Translations under genes and position numbers: made by a program
Origin: an uncultured virus (IMG/VR IMGVR_UViG_3300010158_000044)
Taxonomy: Duplodnaviria; Heunggongvirae; Uroviricota; Caudoviricetes
Length of the DNA: 29,727 nt
Virus record (IMG/VR): IMGVR_UViG_3300010158_000044
Direction: 5' to 3' (one strand)
Shown: piece after piece, positions 1-19,260 of the stretch
Layout of the letters: each line of letters opens with the position of its first letter
Numbering within the stretch: the first letter of the stretch is position 1
The notes under the pieces: model-generated
The model's input: only the letters and a program-made list of their open reading frames with translations
What the model was told of the DNA's origin: nothing
Databases searched by the model: none

Positions 1-515
1 ATCTCTACCGGTAGATATCTGCGACCACGTACTAGCATGTAAGCGCCAGAGGTTTCCTCTGGTGTTTCACCTAGCCATCTAGCCACAGTACCAATTAGAT
101 ATGGAGCAACAGCTGGATACCTAGCACATAGTAATGTCTCAATGCGCTGGTCTTCCAACATGTTGGTAGCCTCCATATAATCATTTTGTAGAACCCATTT
201 GATCAGTTCTGTACCCTTGCGAGGCGTATAGAAATGATGGGCTAGCTCATGATAGTTCAGGCCCGTCACCTGAGTTAGTGTTTCCATATCCATCTCAGAT
301 ATTTCTTCTTGATTGATATAGATTGCGGCACCGTCAGACCAAGCGGGCGCAGGCCCACCAGCCATTACGTTGACGATTAGTGGATCACCTGTAAGAACAC
401 GATCTGCTTGTTCATACACACGACAAAGAGCACCTAATTGAATGATGCGTTCTTGTTCTAGTTCTGAACGAGCGTCTCCTCCCCACGGTGAGTCATCTAC
501 TTCATCTATAAGCAT
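1..515 (-). CDS. CobT-like/VWA-type partner of MoxR ATPase, N-terminal HExxH metallopeptidase-like region (partial, runs off the left edge)
   Basis: Manual translation from ATG at 515 (SD AAGGAGG) is open to base 1: MLIDEVDDSPW...APAWSDGAAIYIN...GLNYHELAHHFYT...TNMLEDQRIETLL. HELAH plus NxxEDxRIE is typical of phage CobT-like partners. It lies directly downstream of the AAA+ gene. The VWA domain itself is not visible in the window. Confidence 0.8.
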   Translation of the reverse strand, partial: MLIDEVDDSPWGGDARSELEQERIIQLGALCRVYEQADRVLTGDPLIVNVMAGGPAPAWSDGAAIYINQEEISEMDMETLTQVTGLNYHELAHHFYTPRKGTELIKWVLQNDYMEATNMLEDQRIETLLCARYPAVAPYLIGTVARWLGETPEETSGAYMLVRGRRYLPVE

Positions 516-524
516 TTAACCTCC

Positions 525-1913
525 TTATACTAGTTGTTTAGCCCATTCTTCCAGGCGTTGGTCAATGCTTGCATCTGCAGGATGCTCTGTTACTTCACCA
601 GTATCTAGACCAAAGTCAGTCTTGATGTTGTACTCATGAGTCTGGAAGACCATGCGTACGCTGGCTTGCTCATCTGTACTAAAGTGAGCGATAAAGTTCT
701 CTGCTGCAAACTCATAGCCAAGATCGTCTACAAGCTTAGTGAACTCCATACCCATATTGGTAGAGATTGGTGTTTCATATTGACCTTTAGCAGCCTCTAC
801 ACGAAGTTGCTTCATCAATATGCGAAGAGCCTTAGAACCAATCAACTTCTCCTCAACAGCATCGTCATAATCCCAAGGGATTTGAATGTCGAAGCGATTG
901 CGGAACGCAAAGTTGAGCGGCGTGGTGCCGATATAATCTGGATTCATAGTAGCAAAGATAGTAAGGTCTGGATGAGCCTCAATAGTCTCGCCGTGATGAT
1001 CGAGCAATATAATATTGCGACGACCATCGGTCAATGAATACAGATTGGTATAGATCTTAGGATTGATGAAGTTAACCTCATCAAGCAAAAGAACGCCACC
1101 ATTGCGAACTACGTCAGTTACTGGACCATCAATCCACATGAATGCACCTTCTCCATCGGAGACGAATTTTCCAGTCATTTGACTTGGCTCCATTGATGCA
1201 TTACCAGAGATTGATGCCATACGTAAGCCACGCTCTGAGGCCCACGCTTCAACTGATGTAGTCTTACCAGGGCCAGTTGGGCCATAGATAAGCACGTTGA
1301 TACCTTCAGCACGTGCGTGGTCATAGACTTTGAAGTCTTCCACGCCCCACACCTTGCGATGTACATAGCGCTCAGCTAATTCCTTGCGTGGAACTGTTGC
1401 AAGATTTACGCTAAACACTTTGCCACCGGATGATACTGATGTGTTGTCCATTGTTTGTGTTGGCACAGGAACTACCAACGGGACTGTTGCACCAGCTTGA
1501 CGACGATTATCTATTACATATGTTTCCAATGTGTCATCTCCAATTAGTGTTTGGTCATACAGTTCATAGAGTTTATCTAAGAACGGTGTTGTATCTGTAT
1601 TAGGTTCAGCCTTAGCATGCTGATTACATGCTTTAGTTCCCAATACAGGAGAATAGCCTTTGTCTGCAATTGCCTTCTCATCTGCTGCCGTAACATATAC
1701 GCCAACAGGGGTCCGTGTCAATTGCTCATTGCTATCAATCATGTTCACGAATTGATCTACGTGAGCATCCTCCCACTTATTGTGTGGACCTTTGCTACCA
1801 TCAGTCATTCGAGACCAGATTCTGACTCCACCTTCATGCGGGGACATAAGGATTTGACGTCGCTTAGCACCCATACTTGGTTCGTAAGACTCGGTGAATA
1901 CTGCTATCTCCAT
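525..1913 (-). CDS. MoxR/CobS/CbbQ-NirQ-NorQ-like AAA+ ATPase with an unknown N-terminal domain
   Basis: Walker A GPTGPGKT, Walker B LLLDEVN, WIDGPVT, sensor-1 ATMNPDYIGT, Arg finger AFRNRF; SD GAAAGGA. Confidence 0.92.
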   Translation of the reverse strand: MEIAVFTESYEPSMGAKRRQILMSPHEGGVRIWSRMTDGSKGPHNKWEDAHVDQFVNMIDSNEQLTRTPVGVYVTAADEKAIADKGYSPVLGTKACNQHAKAEPNTDTTPFLDKLYELYDQTLIGDDTLETYVIDNRRQAGATVPLVVPVPTQTMDNTSVSSGGKVFSVNLATVPRKELAERYVHRKVWGVEDFKVYDHARAEGINVLIYGPTGPGKTTSVEAWASERGLRMASISGNASMEPSQMTGKFVSDGEGAFMWIDGPVTDVVRNGGVLLLDEVNFINPKIYTNLYSLTDGRRNIILLDHHGETIEAHPDLTIFATMNPDYIGTTPLNFAFRNRFDIQIPWDYDDAVEEKLIGSKALRILMKQLRVEAAKGQYETPISTNMGMEFTKLVDDLGYEFAAENFIAHFSTDEQASVRMVFQTHEYNIKTDFGLDTGEVTEHPADASIDQRLEEWAKQLV

Positions 1914-1924
1914 TGTGTTCCTTT

Positions 1925-2188
1925 CTAGTTGTAGTTTTCTTCGTCACGAAGAACTTGTCTTTGCATGACGACTGCTGCTTCATACATTGCTACCTTTTGT
2001 CTAGGCCATTGTGTAATGAGCTCAAACAAAAAGCCGTTCTCTTCTGCCTTCTCCATAATATAGTTCATATGGTCTTGAAGTTCAGAAATAATTTCATTTC
2101 TGACATCTTCAGGCATTTGCTGCAGTTGTTCGATAGCATCGCTACTGAACTCTGGCTCATCATCATCATCCCCACATTCGTGGCACAT
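1925..2188 (-). CDS. Small acidic hypothetical protein with N-terminal CxxC (87 aa)
   Basis: Start moved from 2296 to ATG 2188 (MCHECGDDDD), which follows SD GAAAGGA. Confidence 0.75.
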   Translation of the reverse strand: MCHECGDDDDEPEFSSDAIEQLQQMPEDVRNEIISELQDHMNYIMEKAEENGFLFELITQWPRQKVAMYEAAVVMQRQVLRDEENYN

Positions 2189-2208
2189 GATTAGTTCCTT
2201 TCTGTTAT

Positions 2209-2407
2209 TAGGTTGAGTTGGCTTACCTCCGTTGCCGCACAGGGACTGAATGCCCATCGCACCTTCTCTTTTCATCTCGCATACATTAGTTATCACGTAC
2301 TACTAATGCGTGAGCCTTTAAATTACTCGGTTCTTGAATTGATTAAGTATGATTAGAGGTGGGCTTAGCCAACTCATCCTATTTGGTATTCATATGTGAT
2401 ACCAAAC
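2209..2407 (-). ncRNA. Putative structured RNA domain in an intergenic spacer
   Basis: Long-range helix TAGG-T-TGAGTTGGCT (2209-2223) with AGCCAACTCA-T-CCTA (2367-2381), plus ACCTC/GAGGT. Internal hairpin at about 2275-2314 and an adjacent TTTGGTAT/ATACCAAA hairpin at about 2382-2407. Confidence 0.5.
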
Positions 2408-2899
2408 CTAGAGGTTTAGTGATTCTTTTTCAACGTTCCACATATTGATAGCGTTATCAGTTGTGTTAGCGATTGCTTGGTTGAAAGTCTCTGAGGTCCA
2501 TTTGCGTAAGCCAATGGCTTGATACAGAGTCTTGATGTAATTAGAGGCTTGTTGTGCCGGTACTCTCATAATTACTTCTTTTGCCAAGTCTAATTGACCT
2601 GACATATAAGCCATACTCGCTGCGTATTCACAAAGAGTAAGTTCGGTTTTTGTTTGAACATGCTCAACAGTATTTAGTGCTTGAATAAATGTTCTAGCAC
2701 ATCCTTCTGTTGAATTGCTTTTTAATGCGATCACTAAGAAAGCATCACGTAGCGCTTCTGTTTGTGTTGACCACTCAAGTAGATTGCTAGGCATAATGCC
2801 TGCACTTACATACAGAACTAATTGTTCTGCCCCATCTATTGAGCCGCTTATCTGTGGATAGACTGCTTGTGGATCATACTTAGCCGATAGGTTCGACAT
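2408..2899 (-). CDS. Helical hypothetical protein, DUF4192 C-terminal-like
   Basis: 163-aa ORF. The pattern LRDAFL...AASMAYMSGQLDLAKEVIMR...YIKTLYQAI resembles the actinobacterial DUF4192 C-terminus (recognition by eye only). Confidence 0.55.
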   Translation of the reverse strand: MSNLSAKYDPQAVYPQISGSIDGAEQLVLYVSAGIMPSNLLEWSTQTEALRDAFLVIALKSNSTEGCARTFIQALNTVEHVQTKTELTLCEYAASMAYMSGQLDLAKEVIMRVPAQQASNYIKTLYQAIGLRKWTSETFNQAIANTTDNAINMWNVEKESLNL

Positions 2900-3605
2900 A
2901 GTCTGCCACCATCCTTTCTAGTAGTGTTGCTGCTGATTTGATGATCTTTCCATCACGTAAACGAAGAGGGGTTCCATCCCACTGTGTACGCTCAGGTTTA
3001 CTTCCATAGTCTCTCTTCTTAGAGCCACTACAGAAATAACAAGTTTGGCTTCTCTTTACCATATGAGACTGATCATTTCCGTGTACACACGGCAAGCTAT
3101 GCCAGTATCTATGGCCCTTAACATCCATATCAGGATGTTTTGCGCAGGTTTGAAAGCCTTTTTCATTTATTTTGACGTTGTAACAAGTATCGGTGCTGCA
3201 CCAACCATCTAATAATCCGGTCTGTGAACATTGACGACAGCCTTGTATCTTAGGCTTACTAAGAGGGGCGCCATCTTCTTGTAAATAGAACTTATGATTA
3301 CGCTGGAATACTTGAATACCTGCGTAACGTTGGATAGTAAGACGTACTGAGTGACTGCGTAATGGGTTCCAAGTACTGCCCCAATGTGTAACTGTATCTA
3401 TACCGCTGATAACAGTTGTTCCGTCTTTATGGAAGGTAACGAACTTACTTGTTCCTCCACCAAAGTGCCAACCTATATTTATGGGACTATCAGCGTCCCA
3501 TTTGTTTTCTTTCCAGATGCGAAGACCTCTATCATATAAAGGACGCTCATACTTCTTGCGACCTCCAGATAAGAAAGTCGAACCCCAATTCCAATCAGGA
3601 ATCAT
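2880..3605 (-). CDS. Hypothetical protein with a Cys/His-rich Zn-binding region (DnaJ-like CxxCxxxG)
   Basis: 241-aa ORF with CRQCSQTG and CYFCSGSK plus further Cys/His; TAATG-coupled to the upstream gene. Confidence 0.75.
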   Translation of the reverse strand: MIPDWNWGSTFLSGGRKKYERPLYDRGLRIWKENKWDADSPINIGWHFGGGTSKFVTFHKDGTTVISGIDTVTHWGSTWNPLRSHSVRLTIQRYAGIQVFQRNHKFYLQEDGAPLSKPKIQGCRQCSQTGLLDGWCSTDTCYNVKINEKGFQTCAKHPDMDVKGHRYWHSLPCVHGNDQSHMVKRSQTCYFCSGSKKRDYGSKPERTQWDGTPLRLRDGKIIKSAATLLERMVADYVEPIG

Positions 3606-3916
3606 TAATCAACCTCCTCATAAAATAATGATACTTTGCTCTGCTGTTGTAAGTCAAACATCCGCTCACGCAGACGCTCAACCTGTTTTGCTGGTTCTTC
3701 TTCCTCATAAAAAGAAAGACTAATGGGGAAGATCGGTGCTTCTTGTGCGGGTTGATTTGACAATAAGCCAATTACCATGCCAAGACCATCGATTATGCCG
3801 GCACTATAAGAGCGCATTACTTGGCTCTCTTCGAACTGGCTATCTTGATGTTCTTCCCACATTAACCGATTGATCTTGTCAATCAGTCCCTTGCGCTTAA
3901 CCAGTAACTTTCGCAT
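3605..3916 (-). CDS. Hypothetical protein
   Basis: 103-aa ORF with SD AAGGAGG. Confidence 0.75.
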   Translation of the reverse strand: MRKLLVKRKGLIDKINRLMWEEHQDSQFEESQVMRSYSAGIIDGLGMVIGLLSNQPAQEAPIFPISLSFYEEEEPAKQVERLRERMFDLQQQSKVSLFYEEVD

Positions 3917-3937
3917 ACTGGTACCTCCTTATGGGTA

Positions 3938-3963
3938 AGCCCCCGCCATTGCTGACGGGGGCT
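3938..3963 (-). other. GC-rich stem-loop with GCAA tetraloop (processing or stabilising hairpin, or weak terminator)
   Basis: Minus strand AGCCCCCGTCA-GCAA-TGGCGGGGGCT (one U-G pair); no real U-tract follows. Confidence 0.65.
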
Positions 3964-3979
3964 GGTTTGTTTGTGTTGG

Positions 3980-4414
3980 TTAGCGAATGAATGACGCCCA
4001 TGTAGATGATGAACTGATCTTGAATTCAGTATCAGTTGCACCATCAATTAGAGCGATAGCATTTTGTACTTGCTCATACTCAGATACAGCATCATGACGA
4101 GTATTTTTGTACTGTGGTTCACGCTCATTAGTTGGGCGTTCACCTAGCGCAGCCTCAGCCAATTCAATATTAAATGAATAGGTTAAAGAGAATCGATTGT
4201 GATACTTATTAGTATCAACCTCGTAAGCTTTAGCTACATTCTTTTTAGCCCATGCTTTGGCTTTGCTATCCCAAGCGTCTTGACGCTTGTTGAGAGTTGA
4301 TTGGTTCTTTTCCCATTCACTTATCTCTGCGTCCATACGCTTGAGTGTTTCGGTTAGTTTCTTGACTAAGTCTTTCTTAGCCCAAGTTGTTGCGATGACC
4401 TTGTTACTGGCCAT
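3980..4414 (-). CDS. Hypothetical coiled-coil protein
   Basis: 144-aa ORF with SD AAGGAGG. Confidence 0.8.
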   Translation of the reverse strand: MASNKVIATTWAKKDLVKKLTETLKRMDAEISEWEKNQSTLNKRQDAWDSKAKAWAKKNVAKAYEVDTNKYHNRFSLTYSFNIELAEAALGERPTNEREPQYKNTRHDAVSEYEQVQNAIALIDGATDTEFKISSSSTWASFIR

Positions 4415-4427
4415 AGCACGCCTCCTT

Positions 4428-4733
4428 TTAGTTAGGTGGTGTTACAGGGACTCCTGCAACATATTCATTCTCTTGGCTATCAATAACCACGAGAGTGTTT
4501 TCAACGTAGGCATTGCCTACTGGCGTTTCTCCAATCGTTGCGTAAACCAATGCGCTCTTCAGACTCTGAAGCTCATCTTCGGTAAGGTGCAAGAGCTTGG
4601 TTTTTGCTAAACGATCGACCATACCTATAACACGACCAGCACACTCTAGACGAGTGGCATCTTCGGTCAAGTCATCGGAATATTTTTTCTCTTTGAGGTA
4701 GTCCAAAGAGTAGACTTTGAGGTTATTAGGCAT
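4428..4733 (-). CDS. Hypothetical protein
   Basis: 101-aa ORF overlapping the upstream stop codon. Confidence 0.75.
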   Translation of the reverse strand: MPNNLKVYSLDYLKEKKYSDDLTEDATRLECAGRVIGMVDRLAKTKLLHLTEDELQSLKSALVYATIGETPVGNAYVENTLVVIDSQENEYVAGVPVTPPN

Positions 4734-5019
4734 TAGACATAGCCTCTAACTTCTCAGGATCAAATGCCGGAGTTAGAGATGTTGCTGTGTACACCTTTCC
4801 TGTTTTCCAATGAGGAATTGATTTGTGGTTCCAACGACCACCCATAGCCTTCCAAGCTTCACGCTTGGCATTACTAGCAGCACTGCGACCATTCACGTGA
4901 GTGAAGTTAGTCTTTTCTGGCTGTGCTGGGCCTGGGTTTTTCTTGCGTGCTTTACCGTTCTTACGGTCGCCCGCTGTGTTTACTTTAGGAGCTGGTGCTC
5001 CTCCTCTACCTTTTGCCAT
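4726..5019 (-). CDS. Small basic Lys/Gly-rich hypothetical protein
   Basis: 97-aa ORF (MAKGRGGAPAPK...) with SD GAAAGGGG. Confidence 0.75.
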   Translation of the reverse strand: MAKGRGGAPAPKVNTAGDRKNGKARKKNPGPAQPEKTNFTHVNGRSAASNAKREAWKAMGGRWNHKSIPHWKTGKVYTATSLTPAFDPEKLEAMSNA

Positions 5020-5039
5020 TGTCTGGCCCCTTTCGGAGG

Positions 5040-5195
5040 TTAGTTGATTGTCTCTACACGAGTGTATAGAGTGTTGATGCCATCATTCCATAGCATCAAT
5101 GCTTCGTTGCGTGTGAGGCCATAGAATAACTGGGCCTCTATAATGAACAGGTGCTTGCCGATGAATGTGTCGGGCGTTGTTTGTGTTGGTTGCAT
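5040..5195 (-). CDS. Small hypothetical protein (51 aa)
   Basis: Manual translation MQPTQTTPDTFIGKHLFIIEAQLFYGLTRNEALMLWNDGINTLYTRVETIN; TAATG-coupled to the upstream gene and fills the gap. Confidence 0.6.
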   Translation of the reverse strand: MQPTQTTPDTFIGKHLFIIEAQLFYGLTRNEALMLWNDGINTLYTRVETIN

Positions 5196-5434
5196 TAGAT
5201 ATGCCAATCTAATAGATCAGTTGTTCCCCATTTACGATAGGGTGCATCTATGATGCTATATAACTTCCACCATCTATACCCTGCTTTGGGCATAGTCTCT
5301 TCGTTCTCATACTTAATTTCATATCTTAATGCTTTATGCAATGGGTATGAAGATAAGTGGTCGCACCAATTAGCAAACCATCTAAGAGGTAATACATTTG
5401 TTTTGTGTATCGGTGTGGTTTTAAAATCTTCCAT
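5195..5434 (-). CDS. Trp-rich small hypothetical protein (79 aa)
   Basis: Start moved to ATG 5434 (MEDFKT), which follows SD GAAAGGA. Confidence 0.7.
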   Translation of the reverse strand: MEDFKTTPIHKTNVLPLRWFANWCDHLSSYPLHKALRYEIKYENEETMPKAGYRWWKLYSIIDAPYRKWGTTDLLDWHI

Positions 5435-5453
5435 TGTTATCCTTTCTATTAGA

Positions 5454-5576
5454 TGAGCAGTTTTAATCATCGTGCTCAGGATGTTTGGCGTAGGCGAGGA
5501 TACTTTTTACTCCTAGGAGCTATCACTATCGTGCCATACCAATTATGGTGAGCAGTTTAACCTCATTGCTCAGGAG
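5454..5576 (-). repeat. Twin ~30-nt repeats foldable as H-type pseudoknots (5454-5483 and 5549-5576)
   Basis: Minus strand CATCCTGAGCACGATGATTAAAACTGCTCA and CTCCTGAGCAATGAGGTTAAACTGCTCA. Confidence 0.7.
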
Positions 5577-5613
5577 TCGTGTTTTACCTCAGGTCTCGCC
5601 AGACCAACTGTCA

Positions 5614-5817
5614 CTAGTAAATTGGAGTAATCTTTACAAGATCTTCTTCCAATTTAGTAGAGACATATTTGCCACTCTCTCGAGTGGATTCGTAACAACC
5701 TTTCCAAGTTTCGTGATAGGTATCAGTACCATTGCGGACTCTGATTTCTAGCTTGGATTGGTGTGATTGTATTCTCCGACCACAGTTGTTACAGTATTGC
5801 AAGGCGGGTTTCGCCAT
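5614..5817 (-). CDS. Small putative Zn-finger protein (67 aa)
   Basis: Start at ATG 5817 after SD AAGGAGG; CNNC...HxxxxxC. Confidence 0.72.
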   Translation of the reverse strand: MAKPALQYCNNCGRRIQSHQSKLEIRVRNGTDTYHETWKGCYESTRESGKYVSTKLEEDLVKITPIY

Positions 5818-5872
5818 TGCGGTACCTCCTTTTAGCAGGTACATCCCACTACTTGTGGGAATACTAATACAG

Positions 5873-5897
5873 ATGGGGGTTGCTAGGCAACCCCCAT
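5873..5897. other. Perfect 11-bp stem-loop
   Basis: ATGGGGGTTGC-TAG-GCAACCCCCAT, with a second hairpin TCCCAC/GTGGGA just to its left. Confidence 0.65.
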
Positions 5898-5960
5898 ACT
5901 GTCAGTTATCCAGGATTAAAGAGGGATTGGACAATCAGTTCAATCCATAACTCACGATGG

Positions 5961-6077
5961 CTATGGGTATCGTAAAGGGCTCAGACCAGGGGTTCGGATA
6001 CATCTATTAGCGAACTCATTACTGAGTAAAGCGTTCGAAGCCTTAGCAACTGCTTTGCCTAATTTCTCAATACACAC
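5961..6077 (-). CDS. Possible 38-aa peptide
   Basis: GTG start after SD GAAAGGA: MCIEKLGKAVAKASNALLSNEFANRCIRTPGLSPLRYP. Confidence 0.4.
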   Translation of the reverse strand: MCIEKLGKAVAKASNALLSNEFANRCIRTPGLSPLRYP

Positions 6078-6100
6078 TCGATATTCCTTTCATTGGTTGT

Positions 6101-6331
6101 CTATACAACCAGGACACACACTAAACGAACTACAAAAGGACCTTTACTCATCTTCGGGTTTACCTTTTCCACAGCCCTGTTAGTGAGTAGATTCTAGGAA
6201 TCTATCCGATACGCCACTGCGCTCAACAACTGTGGGGAATTACAAGCATAGAACGCTAAGTTGAACAGACAACCGCTGCGTCGTGCTTATCCTTTGAGTG
6301 TAGGTGTTTAGTGTGTGTCCTGACTGTACAG
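6101..6331 (-). ncRNA. Putative ~230-nt highly structured RNA
   Basis: Perfect 17-bp inverted repeat at 6110-6126/6306-6322, extended outward by 9 bp (three G-U pairs, valid only on the minus strand) and inward by 5-bp and 7-bp helices, enclosing a multi-branch core. Confidence 0.7.
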
Positions 6332-6374
6332 GCGGGGATTGTTTGTGTTGGAGCGACAGTTAGTATTAGTTACT

Positions 6375-6617
6375 CTATGACCTTCTGCTCTCATAGTCTG
6401 AGATTGCTTCTTGTATTGTTCGTCCATAATCCCCTTGTACACACATACCTGAGTCTTCCATATATGTGTGAACAACAAAAGGGGTTACTTTATTGTGGGC
6501 TAGAAAACACAGCACTATTGTTGTGTTTGGATATATGCCCGGCTTACAGGCTAGTACAAGCCCTTTGTTAGATTCAATATTAGTACCTATACTGATAACT
6601 GTTATATCGTCAGTCAT
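6375..6617 (-). CDS. Small hypothetical phage protein
   Basis: 80-aa ORF with SD AAGGAG. Confidence 0.78.
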   Translation of the reverse strand: MTDDITVISIGTNIESNKGLVLACKPGIYPNTTIVLCFLAHNKVTPFVVHTYMEDSGMCVQGDYGRTIQEAISDYESRRS

Positions 6618-6652
6618 TGCTTATCTCCTTTTTCCATAGCCTACGCATACGC

Positions 6653-6883
6653 CTAGACCAACGCTTCTTGTTGGGTAAGGAAGTTGCTGCATTCGAGCGC
6701 CTCAATTCCTGAATCCTTTGTACCTTGGACTTGTCCTTGTTGGGATAACTGCGGAACATAGATAGTCTCCTTTATCTGCATAGCCATTACCTGTTGAATG
6801 ATTGCAAGACATAGCAAGTGCTTGTCGTGCTGAGTGATAGCACCTGCCTTACTTATCTTGGCTGTTACTTGTAGCGTGTTCAT
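6653..6883 (-). CDS. Small hypothetical protein
   Basis: 76-aa ORF with SD-like AGGAAGG. Confidence 0.6.
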   Translation of the reverse strand: MNTLQVTAKISKAGAITQHDKHLLCLAIIQQVMAMQIKETIYVPQLSQQGQVQGTKDSGIEALECSNFLTQQEALV

Positions 6884-6905
6884 TGTTGCCTTCCTGTAGA
6901 GGGAT

Positions 6906-6948
6906 AAAAGAAGGGCGGGGAGAGCCCCCTCTAGCTCTCAACCCGCCC
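6906..6948 (-). terminator. Rho-independent terminator
   Basis: Minus strand GGGCGGG-TT-GAGAGC...GCTCTC-CCCGCCC followed by TTCTTTT. Confidence 0.7.
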
Positions 6949-6982
6949 GGTGTCTACGTAGATGTAGACCTCTCACATAATG

Positions 6983-7111
6983 CTACTTATTGAGCGTCTC
7001 CTTGAGGAGTTTGACTTGCAGACGCATAGTGCCGACTTCGGCAAGGGTTGCGATACAAAACTCCTCTAACTTGCTGAGATGTTCGTCAATAATGCGGGCT
7101 AACTCTTCCAT
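6983..7111 (-). CDS. Small helical hypothetical protein (42 aa)
   Basis: Manual translation MEELARIIDEHLSKLEEFCIATLAEVGTMRLQVKLLKETLNK; SD AGGAG. Confidence 0.6.
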   Translation of the reverse strand: MEELARIIDEHLSKLEEFCIATLAEVGTMRLQVKLLKETLNK

Positions 7112-7242
7112 TGCTCGTCTCCTAACGATACGGATACATTAAACGGACCGACTTGGATAGCAATCTCTTTAGAGAATGAATACCAAGCGACATTAAGTGC
7201 AATACCCCAATTGCGTGGGGTAATTATCCAATGTAGGTGCAT
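7099..7242 (-). CDS. Small hypothetical protein (47 aa)
   Basis: Manual translation MHLHWIITPRNWGIALNVAWYSFSKEIAIQVGPFNVSVSLGDEQWKS; SD GAAAGGA. Confidence 0.6.
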   Translation of the reverse strand: MHLHWIITPRNWGIALNVAWYSFSKEIAIQVGPFNVSVSLGDEQWKS

Positions 7243-7301
7243 TGTCTTTCCTTTCTTATAGGTGGTGCGTGGGTTGTTTGTGTTGGTACGCCCCCGCCGG
7301 C

Positions 7302-7599
7302 AGAAAATTGGCGGGGAAACTTACTTTAGTGTATATAATTCAACAGCCTTAGTTTCATACTCCATAACCTGTTCAGTTATAACATAGCCAATTACATCAC
7401 TGTCTTGAGCATCTGTTATTAGTTCGGCTACAACCTTCATAGTTCCATCACACATCTCAAAGAAAAATGTGCGTGAAGCATCAGTTACCTCAGAAGGGCA
7501 TTGACGATAGAGCATCTCAAACATAGGGTTATCCTGACTTATAACAGGGTTTAATCCCATCTACTTCTCCTTTCTGTAGAAAATTGGCGGGGAAACTTA
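7302..7599. repeat. 22-bp perfect direct repeats (7302-7323 and 7578-7599) flanking one gene
   Basis: AGAAAATTGGCGGGGAAACTTA occurs twice, each copy including the TAA of a minus-strand gene. Variants at 7980-7997 and 9314-9331; core GGCGGGGA also at 6331-6338. Confidence 0.85.
7321..7560 (-). CDS. Small acidic hypothetical protein
   Basis: 79-aa ORF with SD AAAGGAG. Confidence 0.78.
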   Translation of the reverse strand: MGLNPVISQDNPMFEMLYRQCPSEVTDASRTFFFEMCDGTMKVVAELITDAQDSDVIGYVITEQVMEYETKAVELYTLK

Positions 7600-7809
7600 T
7601 TTGTTGAGGGTATAGTGTGTCTCGTATGTAGAGATAAACGAGAAGGCACCGGCACAGGTATAGCAATACACTTCAGTAGGCACGCCTAGCATAAAGGCAT
7701 CAGTACCGGAGTAGACGAGTTTGGTGGATTCACAATTAGGGACAGCACACACCTTTGGAGCGGGCTTGGTGTGTTGGGAACATACGTATGAGCCTAGGCA
7801 ACCGCACAT
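7597..7809 (-). CDS. Small Cys-rich Zn-finger-like protein
   Basis: 70-aa ORF with CxC..CxxH, CxxxxC and CxxC; abuts the upstream stop codon. Confidence 0.7.
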   Translation of the reverse strand: MCGCLGSYVCSQHTKPAPKVCAVPNCESTKLVYSGTDAFMLGVPTEVYCYTCAGAFSFISTYETHYTLNK

Positions 7810-7941
7810 TTACTTAGCCTTTGCCTTAGCCTTACAGGTCTTACATACATAAGACGAGCCGATAGTAACGAGGTGCATTACTTCAGCCCCGCGTATCTCT
7901 TGCTTGCTCTTGCACTTAGCGCAATAGATGGTTGCGTTCAT
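7810..7941 (-). CDS. Small zinc-ribbon protein (43 aa)
   Basis: Manual translation MNATIYCAKCKSKQEIRGAEVMHLVTIGSSYVCKTCKAKAKAK (two CxxC); SD GAAAGG. Confidence 0.7.
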   Translation of the reverse strand: MNATIYCAKCKSKQEIRGAEVMHLVTIGSSYVCKTCKAKAKAK

Positions 7942-7983
7942 AGCATTACCTTTCGTGGGTGGGATTGTTTATGTCGGGCGAAA

Positions 7984-8390
7984 ATCGGCGGGGATACCGA
8001 TGGCTCTCTGTGTAGATAGAGAGTGAGAGAGACATAAGGAACAGAGACCATACACGCTCACTAAGAAGCCTCAGTCATAAGTCTTATGTCTCTTCCACTA
8101 ACTACCTAGTAACTACCTGCTCATAGAGTAGCCCCCTAGCCGTAGGCCTGGTGGTACTCACAATGATCATAGATAGTTGCCGACAGTAGCCTGAATAGAC
8201 TCCCCACTCCCAATGATGGGAGATAGGGAGCCTATTCGTTAGCAGGACACCGAATTGCGGGCGTGGATTGCTCTGGGGGGCTAGACATTACACCTAGCAC
8301 TGAGCCGATTGGTCGGCATACCCCATCTATGACCATAGAGACTATGACCATAGATAGAGGCAGGGGGAGAACCTAATCCCCCCCTGCTCT
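7984..8390 (-). ncRNA. ~400-nt non-coding region dense in nested inverted repeats (putative structured RNA or regulatory region)
   Basis: Helices at 8028-8038/8083-8093, 8129-8136/8276-8283, 8193-8237 (G-U pairs on the minus strand) and 8360-8387; tandem CTATGACCATAGA. No ORF of 60 aa or more in the track. Confidence 0.55.
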
Positions 8391-8404: not shown

Positions 8405-8977
8405 TTAGGAGATTAACGCTGGCTCTGGTGCGCTCATAACTGCCTTGACCTTCGCTGAAGTCTTGGCAGATTCGTAACGCTTGATGACCGCCTTGAGTGC
8501 CTTGATGTAGTCATCTTGCTCTTCATCTGGTGTGAAGACAATAGACTCATCATCTAAGCGAGAAGCAGACTTAAGGAGTGCCTTGCCACCTACGCCAGAA
8601 GTATTATCTTCTTGACGCTTGGCTTGGCTTACCTTAGTTAGACGCTTGACCGCCTTCTTGTATGACTCGACAACCTTCTCGAAGGTGTCGGCTTTCATTA
8701 CAGAGCGATACACTTCGGACTTACCAAGACGAGCCATCTTGTAGACGGCTGTCTTGTTCTCCTTAGTTGCGCCGTAGGTATAAAGCAACCAACCACCCAT
8801 AGCAAGACGACGGACTTCATCAGACTTTATTAGGTCTGATGCGTCGTTTATTGTGCTGTGGGGGAATTGTGCGAATACCCCTGCCACTTTTACAAAGCGG
8901 GCGGTTACTGCTGTTTCGCTATTGCCTTCTTCTAGGAAGATAGGCTCTAACGCTGTTGCTAGTGTGTGTGTGGACAT
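8405..8977 (-). CDS. Basic helical hypothetical protein, first gene of the leftward arm
   Basis: 190-aa ORF with SD AGGAGG. Confidence 0.8.
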   Translation of the reverse strand: MSTHTLATALEPIFLEEGNSETAVTARFVKVAGVFAQFPHSTINDASDLIKSDEVRRLAMGGWLLYTYGATKENKTAVYKMARLGKSEVYRSVMKADTFEKVVESYKKAVKRLTKVSQAKRQEDNTSGVGGKALLKSASRLDDESIVFTPDEEQDDYIKALKAVIKRYESAKTSAKVKAVMSAPEPALIS

Positions 8978-9401
8978 AATACTCCCCTCCTAAGGGAGAG
9001 AGAGCAGGGCCACTCGCCCTGCTCCCACCACCCCTGCTAGACTAGACGCCTAGCAGGGACAGAAGAAGCAGAGCGCACCACGCCCGCAGTATCTCTCGGC
9101 TTCCTACCGATACATACAACGATAAAAAATACATTCGACACCTTTGTCCCCCCCTACCCTTAAGTCGTTTAAGTCGTGTTTGTCCGCCAGGTGAGACGCA
9201 GGGTTGGGACTATTTTGAGCTATACAGTGGCCAAGGCAGTGTCCGATTTGTGACTTTGATCATAGTTTGATAAGTTGTGAGCGTAAAAACGGGTAACTCT
9301 CATCATAGTTGGTGAAAAAATGGCGGGGAATATGCTAAACTTCATGCAGAGTGCTCAAAATGAGGCTCTAATTAACTAATTTCGTCTAAGGAGAAATTAA
9401 A
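8978..9401. promoter_or_regulatory. Divergent control region between the leftward and rightward arms
   Basis: Strand switch; three hairpins (8982-8998, 9002-9024, 9032-9058); tandem TAAGTCGT at about 9160-9178; ATCATAGTT twice; extended -10 TGCTAAACT at 9333-9341. Confidence 0.6.
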
Positions 9402-9851
9402 ATGGCAACATTTACTACTGGTTTAACACCAGATCGTTCAGAAATCACAATCTCAAACCTCTTTCCTCAGTTCAATCGCTGGGCAATCGGGTTTGATCCA
9501 CTATTTGACACATTTTCTCGTGTCTCTAGTGCAAAATCGAGCGGGTATCCTCCATACAACATCTTCAAATATAAGGACAATTACGTCCTAGAGATCGCTG
9601 TAGCAGGATTTGCTAAGGAAGATATCACCATCACTGTGAAAGAGCTTCAGCTGACCGTAGAAGGCGTTAAATTGCCATCTGTGGACGAGTATGTGCACAA
9701 GGGAATTGCTAACCGTGACTTCAAGCAGGACTTCGTATTAGCGGAGTATGTAGTAGTCAAGGGAGCAGAGATGAAGGATGGATTACTACGCATTAATCTA
9801 GCTCAGGAGCTACCCGAGGAGAAGAAGCCAAAGGTTATTGAAATCGCATAA
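9402..9851 (+). CDS. ibpA: Small heat-shock protein, Hsp20/IbpA family
   Basis: IGFD, YPPYNI, LEIAVAGF, YVHKGIANRDF, MKDGLLRI, PEEKKPKVIEI (IxI motif). Confidence 0.95.
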   Translation: MATFTTGLTPDRSEITISNLFPQFNRWAIGFDPLFDTFSRVSSAKSSGYPPYNIFKYKDNYVLEIAVAGFAKEDITITVKELQLTVEGVKLPSVDEYVHKGIANRDFKQDFVLAEYVVVKGAEMKDGLLRINLAQELPEEKKPKVIEIA

Positions 9852-9855
9852 TCTC

Positions 9856-9864
9856 TGGTAGAAT
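9856..9864 (+). promoter_or_regulatory. Extended -10 promoter element
   Basis: TGGTAGAAT (TGn-TAnnnT), followed by hairpin GCCTCAGTAGG/CCTACTGGGGC at 9878-9904. Confidence 0.5.
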
Positions 9865-9926
9865 ATTTAATAAGGACGCCTCAGTAGGTTATGCCTACTG
9901 GGGCTCCACAATTTTAGGAAGTAAAG

Positions 9927-10019
9927 ATGGATTTAGTAAAAGAAAAAGAAGTAAAAGAGTTAACAGAGCAAGAGAAGCAAGATCTATTCTGGCAGAGCCA
10001 AGTAAGCTTTGAGGAGTAA
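9927..10019 (+). CDS. Acidic micro-protein (30 aa)
   Basis: MDLVKEKEVKELTEQEKQDLFWQSQVSFEE; SD-like AGGAAG. Confidence 0.5.
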   Translation: MDLVKEKEVKELTEQEKQDLFWQSQVSFEE

Positions 10020-10052
10020 CTACATCAAGGCTTCCCGCCGAAAGGAGACGAA

Positions 10053-10157
10053 ATGCTAGATGTGTTATGTTATGACTGTGGAGTAATGTTCCAAGTTGAA
10101 GAAGGAACCAAGAATCCGACTAAGGCTCACAAGGAGTGCAAGAATGCCAACCTATGA
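10053..10157 (+). CDS. Micro zinc-binding protein (34 aa)
   Basis: MLDVLCYDCGVMFQVEEGTKNPTKAHKECKNANL (CxxC...HxxC); SD AAAGGAG. Confidence 0.6.
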   Translation: MLDVLCYDCGVMFQVEEGTKNPTKAHKECKNANL

Positions 10158-10314
10158 CTTTAGATGTGAACGCTGTAAGGTAGTCCATGAGATTACCCGT
10201 TCTTTTACTGATGTGAATACACCACCCTGCCCCGGGTGTGGCGATGAGCTAATCCGCATTTGGCAAGCAACCCCCGCACACTTTAAAGGTGGCGGCTGGG
10301 CTGGTAAAGAGTAG
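10144..10314 (+). CDS. FmdB-family zinc ribbon protein (56 aa)
   Basis: MPTYDFRCERC...CPGCG...FKGGGW signature; SD AAGGAG; start moved to ATG 10144. Confidence 0.9.
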   Translation: MPTYDFRCERCKVVHEITRSFTDVNTPPCPGCGDELIRIWQATPAHFKGGGWAGKE

Positions 10315-10323
10315 ACTTGACCA

Positions 10324-10779
10324 ATGGCAGCTAAAGGTGGTTTAGGTCCCGAGGGATACAAGCGTTTACAAGAAGCTGCTGATATGTTGTCGGGTAAGAA
10401 GGTTATTGCCTCCCGCAATGATGGTTTGGATATGCTTATCCCTAACCGCACTCTTGCACAGAGCAGCGATCCTGATTTTGGTATCGGGTATGAAGTTATG
10501 GATGCTAAGTCCTCAAACCCGCTAGGAAGAGCTAGAGCCCAGAGAATTGGGTATAACAAGGATCTTCAGTACTTAGCTATCCTGATGCGTGATGGAACCC
10601 TTGTAGGATATCCCGGCGTTACTGAAGATGAGTGGGATGACTACTCCAGCTTCTCTTCAACTACTGATTACATAGAAACAATTCTTTCCCGCTACTCTAA
10701 TGGTCGCTGGGAGAATAAGACTCTAGGTAACCTGCCTCAGAGCAACCCCCAAAACTTTACACAAGGCACTATCGATTAG
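10324..10779 (+). CDS. KTSC-like domain protein
   Basis: SSNP...IGYNKDLQYLAILMRDGTLVGYPGVTEDEWDDY...STTDYI follows the KTSC pattern. Confidence 0.65.
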   Translation: MAAKGGLGPEGYKRLQEAADMLSGKKVIASRNDGLDMLIPNRTLAQSSDPDFGIGYEVMDAKSSNPLGRARAQRIGYNKDLQYLAILMRDGTLVGYPGVTEDEWDDYSSFSSTTDYIETILSRYSNGRWENKTLGNLPQSNPQNFTQGTID

Positions 10780-10781
10780 TC

Positions 10782-10790
10782 TGATAGTAT
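10782..10790 (+). promoter_or_regulatory. Extended -10 promoter element
   Basis: TGATAGTAT, 26 nt upstream of the protease ATG. Confidence 0.45.
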
Positions 10791-10816
10791 TTACACCTAA
10801 CTACTGAGAGGGTTCT

Positions 10817-11383
10817 ATGACAACGCTTGTCGCTATACAAGGTGATGGCTGGTCCGTCATTGGATGCGATAGTCGTGCATCTAGTGAAGATGGTCGCTAT
10901 ATGGACCTTGCTACCTCTAAGGTTATAGATAATAACGGAATACTGATCGCAGTCTCCGGTGCTTCCCGTGGTGGAAATATTACACAGTTTGGTTGGAAAC
11001 CGCCTAAACCACGTGCTAATGAAAACTTAGATGTGTTTATTACAAATAGGTTTATACCCCAGATGCGTGAAACTTTTATAAAAGCCGGTTACGATGCCAA
11101 AGATGATGGCGATGCAGCTGGCCACGACTCTAGTCTTATCATTTCAGTTCGTGGAGTTATATACCCAATTTTTGAAGACTACTCGTGGGATCGTGAAGCC
11201 CGCAACGTTTACTACGCAGGTTCGGGTGGAGATGTAGCTCTAGGAGCACTTGAGGCTTTAGAGTACACAAAAGCTAAAAGTCCTGCAGTTGCCGAAAAAA
11301 TATTGCGTAAGGCCGTAGAGATTGCCTGTAAACATGATATTTATTCTGGCGGAAAAATCATTACACACATACAAACTGCCTAA
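10817..11383 (+). CDS. Proteasome-beta/HslV-like N-terminal-threonine (Ntn) protease
   Basis: M-T-T start, D17-S-R19, K34, G47, AGSGG and DIYSGG (numbering from Thr1). Confidence 0.9.
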   Translation: MTTLVAIQGDGWSVIGCDSRASSEDGRYMDLATSKVIDNNGILIAVSGASRGGNITQFGWKPPKPRANENLDVFITNRFIPQMRETFIKAGYDAKDDGDAAGHDSSLIISVRGVIYPIFEDYSWDREARNVYYAGSGGDVALGALEALEYTKAKSPAVAEKILRKAVEIACKHDIYSGGKIITHIQTA

Positions 11384-11453: not shown

Positions 11454-12437
11454 ATGGCCGTAAATAATAATGGCAACTTGGTGGATACCTCCGGCAACGT
11501 TGCAGTAGATTTCGTATGGGGAAATTTCCCTATGCAACCAAATGATGATCGCACAGATGGAACAGCTGTTTCAGTTGTTGCTGCCGATGCATCTGAAAAC
11601 AAGCAGTGGACCGGATACTCAGTGTATCCAAGTGCTCGCCTAAACGCATCTTACGATAGCCACGCTATCGCAGAAGCAGAGTGGGCTAACTATCCTTCAT
11701 TTATTGCAGCTGAACCTAACTACATGGTTTCAGCAGTATCAGGTGATGGAACAACAGTTACATACACATGTCAGAATTACTTCACTGGTGGAGAGTCTGT
11801 AAACATTACTGGTCTTACAGCAAATGCTTACAACCTTTCATCAGCAACAGTTGTAAACCCACAAAAGACTTCATTCCAAGTTACTAACGCAGCAAACGCT
11901 GGAACTATTACAGGTCAACTTGGTAAGGTTCAATCAACAACTGCTCTTACAGCAGCTGATGGTTTTGGAATTAACTCAGGTGTTCCATACATTCAAGTAC
12001 CTTCAGTAATCGGTAAGACAACAGCTCTTGCTCTTGATGCTCTTAAGGATGCTGGTTACGAAGCAGCTAATATCACAACAGCAGCTGGCGCAACAAACGC
12101 AGCTTCAACAATCACAGCAGTTTCACGTACAGGTACAGCAGCAACAATCACCTCTTCAGGTGCTGGTGCTAAGTACCCAGTTGGAACTAAGATTACAGTT
12201 GCATCACTTGTATCACCAGATACTGCACTAAACGGTACTTGGACAGTTACAGCAGTTGCTACAAACACTGTTTCTTTCACAACCACAACATCAGGTACTC
12301 TTTCAACAACAGGTCTTTCTGTTGCTGGACTTACAGGTGTTGCTGGAACAATCAAGACTCAGTCAACAGCTGCAAATGCTGCCTCAACCGCAACAACAGC
12401 TACAATTACAATCACACCGTTTGCAACAGCTTCATAA
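11454..12437 (+). CDS. Thr/Ala-rich protein with a PASTA-like domain and two beta-rich modules (probable virion surface protein)
   Basis: IQVPSVIGKTTALALDALKDAG...GTIKTQS (PASTA-like); modules of the form V-x-A-x-S-G-x-x-x-x-T-Y...GxxVxIxG...N...V...SF. Confidence 0.7.
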   Translation: MAVNNNGNLVDTSGNVAVDFVWGNFPMQPNDDRTDGTAVSVVAADASENKQWTGYSVYPSARLNASYDSHAIAEAEWANYPSFIAAEPNYMVSAVSGDGTTVTYTCQNYFTGGESVNITGLTANAYNLSSATVVNPQKTSFQVTNAANAGTITGQLGKVQSTTALTAADGFGINSGVPYIQVPSVIGKTTALALDALKDAGYEAANITTAAGATNAASTITAVSRTGTAATITSSGAGAKYPVGTKITVASLVSPDTALNGTWTVTAVATNTVSFTTTTSGTLSTTGLSVAGLTGVAGTIKTQSTAANAASTATTATITITPFATAS

Positions 12438-12456
12438 TAGCAAAAACTAAATAGCG

Positions 12457-12490
12457 CAAAGGTCGGGAGAAATCCCGGCCTTTGGCATTT
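12457..12490 (+). terminator. Probable terminator
   Basis: CAAAGGTCGGGA-GAAA-TCCCGGCCTTTG followed by GCATTT. Confidence 0.7.
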
Positions 12491-12521
12491 CTAAGAGTTC
12501 TATTGGTGGGAGAATACGATT

Positions 12522-12818
12522 ATGACTCACACACACCATCATCTAAAAAAGCATGCAAAGCATAAGCATGATCACACTGTGTCTGTAGGACGTGGTGGGT
12601 TTTTGGTACCAGGGCAAAGTTGGTGGGGATGCTGGGGCAATAATTGTGATGGTAAGGGTAATGGTGATGAAAGTAACAACCACGAAGCTAGTGAAACGTC
12701 TCAACAAGAGAGTCAGGAGCAAGGCGATGGTGCAGCAGCAACAGCAGGCGGAGAGGCCGGAGAAGCGGGAGCAGTCTCAACCGGTTCAGGAGCTAGTGCT
12801 GGGGCCGGTGGTATGTGA
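12522..12818 (+). CDS. His-rich N-terminus, low-complexity Gly/Ala/Glu tail, hypothetical
   Basis: 98-aa ORF with SD GGGAG. Confidence 0.65.
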   Translation: MTHTHHHLKKHAKHKHDHTVSVGRGGFLVPGQSWWGCWGNNCDGKGNGDESNNHEASETSQQESQEQGDGAAATAGGEAGEAGAVSTGSGASAGAGGM

Positions 12819-12975
12819 CCAATGCTCTGCTAGAGCAAAGATGGAAGTATCATTAACGTCGGGGATTTTAACATTCTGTCTACATCACTATAATATTAAT
12901 GCCCAAGCGCTTACAGAAAAGGGCGGAATTGCTAAACTTCTTGACATATCAGGCGAAAAGGTAGGATTAGCATGA
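12796..12975 (+). CDS. Small CxxC...CxHH zinc-finger protein, actinobacterial type (59 aa)
   Basis: CDQCSARA...LTFCLHH; GTG start after AGGAG preferred over the 12592 start. Confidence 0.7.
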   Translation: MLGPVVCDQCSARAKMEVSLTSGILTFCLHHYNINAQALTEKGGIAKLLDISGEKVGLA

Positions 12976-13721
12976 AGAACACATTGAATAATGGTAGCGC
13001 CGTTCAGGCCAGTAATACCATCGGGGCAAACGGTGGCATCCTTGGTGCAATGGTCAAAAAGTGGCAGATGGATTATAACCACAATTTAGAGATGGATCGC
13101 ATCAAGCACAAAACTATAATGGGTCTTGCAGCAGAATCTGCTGGCGCTGCAATTCAACATCATTATAATACTGTTATGGAAGGCATCAAGACTTCAGAGC
13201 TTGATAAGCGTAACACTCGTCAAAACGAACTTGATCAGCAATTAGAACAAGCAAAGCATATTAATAAGACTGCACAACAAGATCAAGCTACTTCAGGAAA
13301 TATTAAACTTGCACAGAAAACTGCTGCAGCTGCTCGTGCTACAAAGAAACATGGAAATGTAACAGATCTTAACTCTATGAAAGCACTTAGCAAAAGTCTT
13401 AATGAAGGTACTGTTTCTCCATTTGTTGCTGGCCCAAATAGCATTCAAAATATTGGTCCTGGATTAACTCAGCATATTAATACACTATTCCCTGCTGCCG
13501 GAGCAGCTGGCAATACTAATACAAAAACTACTAACCCTAACCCAGGAACTCAACCTCCTACAAGTAAAGTTCGTAAGAAGAGTGCTCCTAAACCTCGTAC
13601 TACTCCAGTAGGCGCAACACCAAACCCATCTTCATCACCTGTTGTAACCCCGGCTGCAGCTCCTCAAGTAAAGCCTGCACGTCGTGCTAAGAAAGCTACT
13701 ATCGCAAAGGTTAATCCATAA
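12972..13721 (+). CDS. Hypothetical protein with coiled coil and basic Pro/Thr/Lys-rich tail
   Basis: 249-aa ORF, overlap-coupled on both sides. Confidence 0.8.
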   Translation: MKNTLNNGSAVQASNTIGANGGILGAMVKKWQMDYNHNLEMDRIKHKTIMGLAAESAGAAIQHHYNTVMEGIKTSELDKRNTRQNELDQQLEQAKHINKTAQQDQATSGNIKLAQKTAAAARATKKHGNVTDLNSMKALSKSLNEGTVSPFVAGPNSIQNIGPGLTQHINTLFPAAGAAGNTNTKTTNPNPGTQPPTSKVRKKSAPKPRTTPVGATPNPSSSPVVTPAAAPQVKPARRAKKATIAKVNP

Positions 13722-19109: not shown

Positions 19110-19260
19110 ACTATCTCCTAGGCTTGAGAGCCAACCCGAATCCTCATCCAACTGTCACTTGGATGAAAATAGCCCGGCGTCTGTCTGCCAAGCTAGTTGC
19201 AACCCTTTTGTTTCGTTGTTAGTGTTAGAGGCTATGACCCCTCTATGAAATACTGTACCA
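19110..19260 (-). promoter_or_regulatory. Extended -10 promoter and multi-hairpin 5' leader of the transglycosylase gene
   Basis: TGGTACAGT at 19260-19252, then hairpins AGAGG/CCTCT, TAGCTTGGC/GCCGGGCTA, TCATCCAA/TTGGATGA and a short stem abutting the SD. Confidence 0.55.

Follow-up and report, generated by a model that had tools for sequence, protein, structure and literature searches.

An oriented 13-nucleotide word repeated along the leftward arm of a freshwater actinobacterial myovirus: putative docking sites of a trans-acting factor

The stretch of DNA analyzed here, hereafter the window, comprises 29,727 nucleotides (nt) of an uncultured virus of the class Caudoviricetes (IMG/VR record IMGVR_UViG_3300010158_000044). 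Its leftward gene block, hereafter the arm, carries a repeated plus-strand 13-mer, TTGTTTGTGTTGG, hereafter the word. The word is real, keeps one orientation relative to the genes, is confined to the arm, recurs at regular intervals, is under nucleotide-level selection, is conserved in related phages, and varies in concert within lineages. Orientation, confinement, spacing, nucleotide selection, and concerted variants together point to docking sites of one sequence-specific, transcription-polar factor, and we consider it likely that the copies are sites where one trans-acting factor docks and acts on the expression of the arm.

Results

Copies of the word in the window and upstream of it

Scanning of the window yields exact copies of TTGTTTGTGTTGG at 1451, 3967, 5177, 6339, and 7274, and variants with two mismatches at 2758 and 7965, all on the plus strand; the positions and the single orientation listed in a preliminary description of the window, made from its letters, are thereby confirmed. 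As the genes between position 1 and ~8000 all run leftward, the gene-sense form of the word is CCAACACAAACAA. Matches with at most two mismatches number 9, compared to a mean of 1.07 and a maximum of 4 in shuffled sequences, and 0 of 100 shuffles reach 9, more than expected by chance. Outside the arm, the window contains two weak matches, at 19216 (+) and 24499 (–).

The series of copies continues past the left edge of the window. The window is a part of virus record G001 starting from base 13445 (4 mismatches over 28,589 bases), and the upstream part of this record adds exact copies at 12051 and 13103, and a copy with one mismatch at 10841. Another one-mismatch copy, at G001 9520, is on the opposite strand, 4 nt past the stop codon of a rightward open reading frame (ORF) of 53 amino acids (aa) and 3 nt ahead of a GC-rich hairpin with a T-run. 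This hairpin (G001 ~9537–9562) is a bidirectional terminator, the meeting point of the leftward arm and a rightward operon that ends in class II ribonucleotide reductase (RNR). Altogether, this phage has 9 sense copies of the word, the logo of which (Y-CAACACAAACA-W) is described below, and 1 copy at the terminator. The 53-aa ORF itself (G001 9354–9515, L014), the last gene of the rightward operon and just ahead of the word and the bidirectional terminator, is extremely acidic (Asp/Glu-rich).

The arm and the copies in the window, in the direction of the genes, are as follows (SD, Shine–Dalgarno sequence; the strand is that of the gene-sense form).

1–7977, continuing ~3.9 kb beyond the left edge to G001 ~9537–9562, minus strand: the arm, a leftward gene block carrying the word, as seen in the ORF maps; holds all copies.
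7965–7977, minus strand: first copy, variant CCGACATAAACAA; in the leader, 24 nt ahead of the first arm gene (7810–7941), right after a weak hairpin (~7984–8001).
7274–7286, minus strand: exact copy; 5 nt past the hairpin 7292–7316 (CCCCGCC..GGCGGGG), 31 nt ahead of the start of gene 7099–7242; the same hairpin–word–SD layout occurs in locus L120.
6339–6351, minus strand: exact copy; 23 nt past the stop of gene 6375–6617, where a structured, ORF-free gap of 530 nt begins, beside a long stem.
5177–5189, minus strand: exact copy; 5 nt past the stop of gene 5195–5470, forming codons 3–6 of a small ORF (MQPTQT...); orthologous sites in G002 and L121/L122.
3967–3979, minus strand: exact copy; 0 nt past the stop of gene 3980–4414, followed 4 nt on by a hairpin (~3939–3962), then by the SD and start of gene 3605–3916; orthologous sites in L120–L123.
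2758–2770, minus strand: variant TCAACACAAACAG with an intact core; within the 163-aa gene 2408–2899 (WSTQTE); the position is also occupied in L118 and L120–L122.
1451–1463, minus strand: exact copy; within the AAA_5 ATPase gene 525–1913, in the variable linker between the N-terminal domain and the AAA domain (VPTQTM).

Orientation and distribution in related phages

The comparison covers 34 loci (632 kb in total) around relatives of the ATPase (54–100% identity), oriented with the arm on the plus strand. The 11-nt core CAACACAAACA is found there 181 times in sense and 30 times in antisense orientation, and the reversed-word control 0 times. Most loci have one antisense copy; in the contexts examined, it is in the sense orientation of a converging operon, lying between a stop codon and a terminator hairpin (bidirectional terminator). 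A second conserved stop–word–terminator module closes another rightward operon. At three operon ends, the orientation flips with the local gene direction, the copies being 3–5 nt ahead of terminator hairpins. In the complete ~100-kb genomes G008–G011 and in this phage, the word is confined to the 12–15-kb arm, with few outliers. Eight of these were examined: three belong to the second stop–word–terminator module, three are in sense orientation inside genes, one faces an antisense ORF, and one lacks the first letter. The bias in orientation and position expected from the window thus extends to its relatives, and the 34 loci show neither random orientation nor lack of conservation.

In G005 (~39935) and L235 (3276), a copy is located a few nt upstream of an apparent (by eye) tRNA or tRNA-like gene inserted in the arm.

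Nucleotide selection and spacing

A copy of the core occupies the equivalent coordinate of the ATPase gene (~10443–10452) in most of the 34 loci. Among 28 distinct ATPase sequences, the third positions of the four codons forming the word are 0.96–1.00 identical, and the four codons themselves are 93–96% identical; the linker around the word features amino acid identity of 0.2–0.5, third-position identity of 0.3–0.5, and indels. Inside genes, selection acts on the nucleotides of the word, and the synonymous-site conservation of an intragenic copy, named as a check in the preliminary description, is observed. The homologs of the ATPase in cultured phages cover residues 168–461 only; hence, the word lies at the junction of a clade-specific N-terminal domain and the AAA domain. 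The linker copy is possibly a former intergenic site.

The copies are regularly spaced, with the median interval of 1,236 nt (interquartile range 1,050–1,641; 134 intervals in 21 non-redundant loci). The mean coefficient of variation of spacing is 0.33, compared to 0.80 for random placement in the same spans, and 0 of 2,000 simulations are as regular, which, as the loci are related, is not a strict probability.

Variants of the word

Variants, labeled by lineage as AC, AT, GT, G3, and CCGCAACAAAA, tend to be shared by the copies of a locus. In L142, CCAACGTAAACA is found in four of six copies, and CCAACATAAACA in the other two, one of them the terminator copy; in L218, CCAACATAAACA is found in five of six copies, including the terminator one; in L235, CCGACACAAACA is found in four of six. 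In a distant clade (L246, L247, L248; G319), with the ATPase only 32–33% identical, the word is absent, and C/A-rich CCGCAACAAAA is present instead. Its placement is that of the word: on the sense strand, in the ATPase linker, after stop codons, and after a hairpin and before an SD. The three loci contain 5, 2, and 4 copies of CCGCAACAAAA, and a complete genome 4+3 (control, 0). A conserved grammar with a lineage-specific word is expected of a cis site with a co-evolving trans-acting reader.

At positions 1–11, there are 70 transitions and 23 transversions. This bias proves nothing about wobble pairing, since every transition in a word of C and A automatically retains wobble compatibility, and the matches with two mismatches are contaminated (the control yields 79 of them).

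Anatomy of the word and its gene context

The logo built from 191 distinct contexts is Y-CAACACAAACA-W, followed by ~10 C-rich, T-poor positions; these contexts have no second box and no upstream conservation. Given a naive ORF call and all 211 copies, near-identical loci included, 73 copies are between genes. Of the latter, 18 begin 0 nt past a stop codon and 44 begin within 10 nt of it; a downstream start is called for 70, and 34 of these end at most 50 nt from it. Mid-gene copies, defined as those with at least 40 open codons on both sides, comprise 72 of 181 distinct copies (~40%), and are in frames 0, 1, and 2 in 46, 25, and 1 cases, respectively; given this spread, the single reading frame reported for intragenic copies holds for the window only.

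A hairpin of at most –10 kcal/mol is found within 40 nt downstream of 29% copies (largely terminator copies) and upstream of 19%, compared to 12% of 600 random 40-mers; hence, hairpins are frequent neighbors of the word and not a part of the element. The earlier statement that intergenic copies abut hairpins matches the local context in the window (3967, 7274, 7965, and, with a long stem, 6339). Two layouts, hairpin–word–SD and word–hairpin–SD, are recurrent, and the distant clade shows them as well; some sites have an SD that begins immediately after the word (e.g., TAA–word–GGAGG–ATG). The word is inherently unpaired, with the opening energy of ~2.3 kcal/mol; its flanks show no extra selection for RNA accessibility (2.31 compared to 2.16 kcal/mol in transplant controls, p = 0.77).

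Several other structures were seen near the copies. Members of a hairpin-forming repeat family (CCCCGCC...GGCGGGG) without a T-run are present at the arm start and in the divergent region (7292–7316, 7578–7602, 7979–8003, 9316–9330); two of them stand directly ahead of word copies. The 530-nt ORF-free gap (5845–6374, minus sense) right after the copy 6339–6351 folds far better than shuffled sequences (z = –4.98). It contains a 25-bp long-range stem, 6306–6331 with 6101–6126, kept in five related phages with one compensatory pair, while ~280 nt enclosed by the stem differ among these phages. The gap matches no Rfam family, and may represent a non-coding RNA or a stem processed in the manner of RNase III sites.

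The phage and its arm

Together with the 72-kb record G007 of the same phage (2 mismatches in a 7,282-base overlap), the window yields ~94 kb of sequence. The phage is a roughly 95–100-kb myovirus of freshwater Actinobacteria. Its virion genes encode a contractile tail (T4 gp19-like tube, baseplate J/W/V), terminase, portal, and capsid; further genes encode PolA, DnaB, primase, RecA, SNF2 helicase, two WhiB proteins, SpoVS, Hsp20, and an HslV-like protease. The presence of WhiB points to an actinobacterial host; the G+C content is 44%. The capsid protein is ~70% identical to those of Streptomyces phage BRock, in which the word is absent, and its kin, and 598 capsid relatives in IMG/VR were confirmed by tblastn. 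The RNR query found no relative among genome contigs. The RecA query matched, at 61%, a 7.5-kb contig from a metagenome-assembled genome titled uncultured Rhodoluna sp., a contig that could itself be of phage origin, and, at 50%, a genome of Streptomyces.

The arm (~13 kb) is the sole minus-strand block in ~94 kb of this phage. Its conserved core consists of the AAA_5 ATPase, a VWA protein, a 241-aa protein with two CxxCxGxG motifs, and a 63-aa protein. This core (window 525–3605; G001 12064–13959), with its ATPase (MoxR/CobS-like), VWA protein, and 241-aa protein, resembles a proteostasis set; Hsp20 and the HslV-like protease are encoded across the control region (9402–11383). At 13721–16885, the window has a 1054-aa Lys/Ala/Glu-rich low-complexity ORF with no family match; it is not an RNA polymerase.

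The phage is found in lake-water metatranscriptomes from three studies, as assembled contigs. RNA of the arm is represented by contig pieces of 150–250 nt only, and its starts and ends are not readable from contigs. The ORF at 8405–8977 and hsp20 (9402–9851) are covered by RNA contigs of 440–580 nt, over 8406–8987 and 9361–9877; contig ends at 8981–8987 and 9361–9365 recur between studies.

Discussion

Proposed mechanism and its reader

The word would be a cis-acting recognition site on the coding (non-template) strand of one ~13-kb operon, kept by selection at ~1.2-kb intervals, both between genes and in variable linkers within genes. Its reader would be one sequence-specific trans-acting factor, co-evolving with the phage lineage. 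Docking of the factor may take place on duplex DNA at every copy, with its orientation fixed with respect to RNA polymerase, and the docked factor may brake or stop elongation, so that one protein could shut off or insulate the whole arm; copies preceding terminators at the ends of converging operons would then reinforce operon boundaries. Protein binding, reading of the word as duplex DNA, and the block to elongation are three steps that we infer. A stoperator-like brake on duplex DNA is, by analogy, the specific form of the docking model that we put forward tentatively; it is plausible, but we would not call it probable.

The analogy is with the stoperators of Cluster A mycobacteriophages. 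According to the published account (PMC9283540), L5-type repressors bind more than 20 asymmetric 13-mers, whose orientation follows transcription and which provide no repression when reversed, and these sites are located throughout the genome. Cluster A stoperators (L5 gp71; the TipsytheTRex repressor) share with our element the asymmetric 13-mer in an actinobacterial phage, many dispersed copies, transcription-linked orientation, location in short intergenic spaces and sometimes in genes, and lineage-specific variants. The element is most like stoperators among the systems considered, although it fails in two respects: spread through the whole genome, promoter operators included, and, as judged from the one candidate proposed, a cognate monomeric immunity repressor with HTH and stoperator domains. 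Further differences from stoperators are the share of intragenic copies (~40%), the kind of phage (a ~100-kb myovirus), an unrelated sequence, and the near-invariance of the word over a wide phage group.

Several observations weigh against the docking model or its stoperator form. Firstly, and unlike stoperators as described there, the word here is restricted to one ~13-kb arm and a few operon ends, with regular spacing. Secondly, it is almost invariant across phages with 54–100% ATPase identity, unlike fast-diverging immunity systems. Thirdly, the copy number per relative varies from 2–3 (L137–L141) up to 13, and, therefore, the system is dispensable or decaying in some lineages. Fourthly, the word has no letters but C and A and is followed by the C-rich, T-poor tail, a composition no less suited to a target read as a single strand (RNA or the non-template strand) than to duplex DNA. 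Fifthly, Pfam scans of this phage turned up no integrase or partition genes, so that an immunity-repressor setting is not supported.

The last group of such observations concerns the reader. The binder suggested in the preliminary description, the product of ORF 8405–8977, has a tblastn homolog in one of the 34 loci (L120), though 25 loci hold the full 10 kb upstream, and nine clusters of close homologs (62–96% identity) in a collection of 5.8 billion proteins. It has no Pfam match and no sequence match in PDB. Its structural model is all-helical (pLDDT 78), with the best Foldseek match in PDB at E = 0.5, and matches no helix-turn-helix (HTH) or stoperator-repressor-like fold. As dozens of phages share the word and lack this ORF, we reject it as the conserved reader; it was the only candidate tested as a cognate HTH repressor, and none was found. 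A comparison of gene content in 11 genomes (7 motif-rich, 3 motif-poor, 1 variant) revealed no protein family present in at least six of seven motif-rich and none of three motif-poor genomes, and no other reader candidate; divergence ratios for the variant genome G013 singled out no convincing protein. The proposal that the word is a binding site of a regulator (on DNA or single-stranded RNA) coordinating the leftward operon is thus supported in part: it is consistent with the orientation, confinement, conservation, nucleotide selection, and concerted variants, but no binder was found in these searches.

ORF 8405–8977 is flanked by two non-coding stretches of ~425 nt, in which the palindrome CTATGAYCATAG occurs in five copies (8161–8173, 8327–8354, 9250–9310). 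A dimeric regulator probably uses these palindromes as operators in the divergent control region, and they are more likely the own operators of this ORF.

Possible reading as a single strand

The main rival to docking on duplex DNA is a single-stranded reload site, possible but rather doubtful in our view: an elongation factor would board RNA polymerase about every 1.2 kb at the word, read in the nascent RNA or in the non-template strand of the bubble, in the manner of nut or ops and mainly to counter Rho-type termination. The obligatory sense orientation suits such a site, as does the C/A-only, inherently unpaired word with its opening energy given above; 13 nt is about the size of the transcription bubble or of ops and boxA; regular spacing and copies kept in genes suit a signal read by polymerase rather than by the ribosome; and the first copy is in the arm leader. 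On the other hand, 8–13 such sites per operon are without known precedent, and copies directly ahead of final terminators at three operon ends would be odd for an antiterminator, unless it acted on Rho only. No NusG-type family was found in Pfam scans of the ORFs, N- and Q-type proteins not being searched for specifically, and the flanks lack the extra accessibility selection that could be expected.

Lambda-type nut sites and rrn boxA mediate NusB/NusE-dependent antitermination and are present in one or two promoter-proximal copies per operon, with an adjacent hairpin of the boxB type. They resemble our element in being linear sense-strand elements of ~12–13 nt that are found in leaders of long phage operons, at times beside a hairpin. 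However, only 6 of 13 letters match the E. coli boxA in a hand comparison, and motif-rich arms have 8–13 copies, most without a hairpin and some immediately preceding a final terminator. Two actinobacterial rrn operons, inspected over the last ~200 nt before 16S, show no copy of the word, so that a boxA mimic is not supported. The boxA/nut analogy drawn earlier is therefore weak. The ops element is read by RfaH on the non-template strand and occurs once or twice, in the leader. It shares with the word the length of 12–13 nt, orientation with one transcription direction, and association with long operons, but differs in having fewer copies and another composition; in addition, Pfam scans of the ORFs of this phage yielded no NusG-type match, with small ORFs without any match remaining, and the factor could be one of the host.

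A more specific form, which we regard as rather unlikely, is a new hairpin-free, C/A-only single-stranded reload signal, which would set the processivity or fate of one long operon and co-evolve with its reader across abundant freshwater actinobacterial phages, the distant clade using another C/A-rich word with the same grammar.

RNA processing, DNA metabolism, and other alternatives

The word could also be a site of RNA processing or decay, where an endoribonuclease, or an RNA-binding protein guiding one, would cut arm transcripts at each copy, with hairpins setting segment stability and turnover becoming faster, as at T4 RegB and T7 RNase III sites. The positions of between-gene copies, 0–10 nt past the stop (44/73) and at most 50 nt from the next start (34/70), would suit such a role, as would the recurrent hairpin–word–SD and word–hairpin–SD layouts, seen in the distant clade as well, and the restriction of the word to one temporal or functional block. 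We nevertheless hold it to be decidedly unlikely: cutting at the conserved mid-gene copies (72 of 181 unique ones) would destroy messages, and cutting ahead of terminators would leave transcripts of other operons without their protective 3' hairpin; specificity for 13 nt is also unusual among known RNases. The only nuclease-like lead, a HicA-like 79-aa ORF (G001 10274–10513), was rejected as sub-threshold (E = 0.012, 16 bits with the cut-off of 27), and it is absent from motif-rich L125, L126, and L143–L145. Among known systems, T4 PeSL cassettes, T7 early RNase III sites, and T4 RegB sites are similar as repeated words between small genes of one temporal block, often by hairpins; here, in contrast, promoter features are absent, the word is not a hairpin, and many copies are within conserved genes.

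A signal in DNA metabolism appears quite improbable, whether for single-strand nicks (as in T5, phiKMV, tf), for a polar translocase or nuclease (Chi-like), or as a linker for cassette recombination (T4 PeSL-like). The word is strand-specific, roughly regularly spaced, and tolerated in genes, with the other strand G/T-rich, and ends of homology blocks are enriched near it (205 compared to 135 expected; 1.24 per site compared to 0.98 at other gene ends); but this enrichment is weak and confounded with intergenic position. Moreover, at three operon ends the orientation follows the gene direction, with the word exactly between the stop and the terminator, and ~85% of the genome lacks the word, though a packaging, Chi, or priming signal would need coverage there.

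Reading of the word and its C-rich tail by the host core machinery, as a stand-by or enhancer pad for the ribosome or a compact Rho loading site after stops, is highly improbable. A C/A-rich, unstructured word, often placed between a stop codon and the next SD and strongly conserved across divergent phages, would suit a conserved host reader. Still, such loose signals would not be expected to keep 11 letters exactly or to vary in concert within lineages, and mid-gene and pre-terminator copies misfit a role in translation. Pairing with host rRNA was rejected: the longest complementary run is 8 nt, in the pre-16S leader, and the runs within 16S are 7 and 6 nt (two genomes); 294 of 301 Actinomycetia genomes lack the exact complement.

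Two other candidates were considered. A host-native element is ruled out, as the exact word is found in 7 of 301 Actinomycetia genomes, in one copy each and in contexts that look random, compared to 3 for the control. A mobile repeat of the MITE or REP type was rejected given strict orientation and nothing conserved beyond ~13 nt and the compositional tail. Rfam yielded no family at E ≤ 1 except for one chance miRNA match.

Finally, a series of promoters along the arm, used by a phage-specific or modified RNA polymerase, can practically be dismissed. Phage-specific promoters (T7, phiC31 early promoters, T4 PeSL) are typically short conserved words that recur behind hairpins where small genes are clustered, but the word has no second conserved box and, containing no T, no –10-like element, its conserved copies are found 3–5 nt ahead of terminator hairpins at three operon ends, an SD directly follows it in some sites, and five related records yielded neither a T7-type RNA polymerase (PF00940; a search without a positive control) nor sigma-70 region 2 (PF04542; the control was detected in 10 of 14 genomes).

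Implications

A full-text search covering the word and its core, as well as the complements of both, found no published description, none of the matches listed being on phages; in passages of the COBRA paper on whiB-encoding freshwater actinophages, "motif" occurs 0 times. A strictly oriented, regularly spaced, nucleotide-selected word marks one regulatory unit of a phage group with hundreds of related IMG/VR contigs, whose hosts are uncultured Actinobacteria. The word provides a direct handle on its reader, by pull-down or by covariation across the AC, AT, GT, G3, and CCGCAACAAAA lineages. If the reader of the word does block or license elongation in an orientation-dependent manner, the stoperator principle would no longer be limited to temperate Cluster A mycobacteriophages but would include large myoviruses that appear to be lytic, and the word could serve as a compact, orientation-specific part for transcription control in Actinobacteria.

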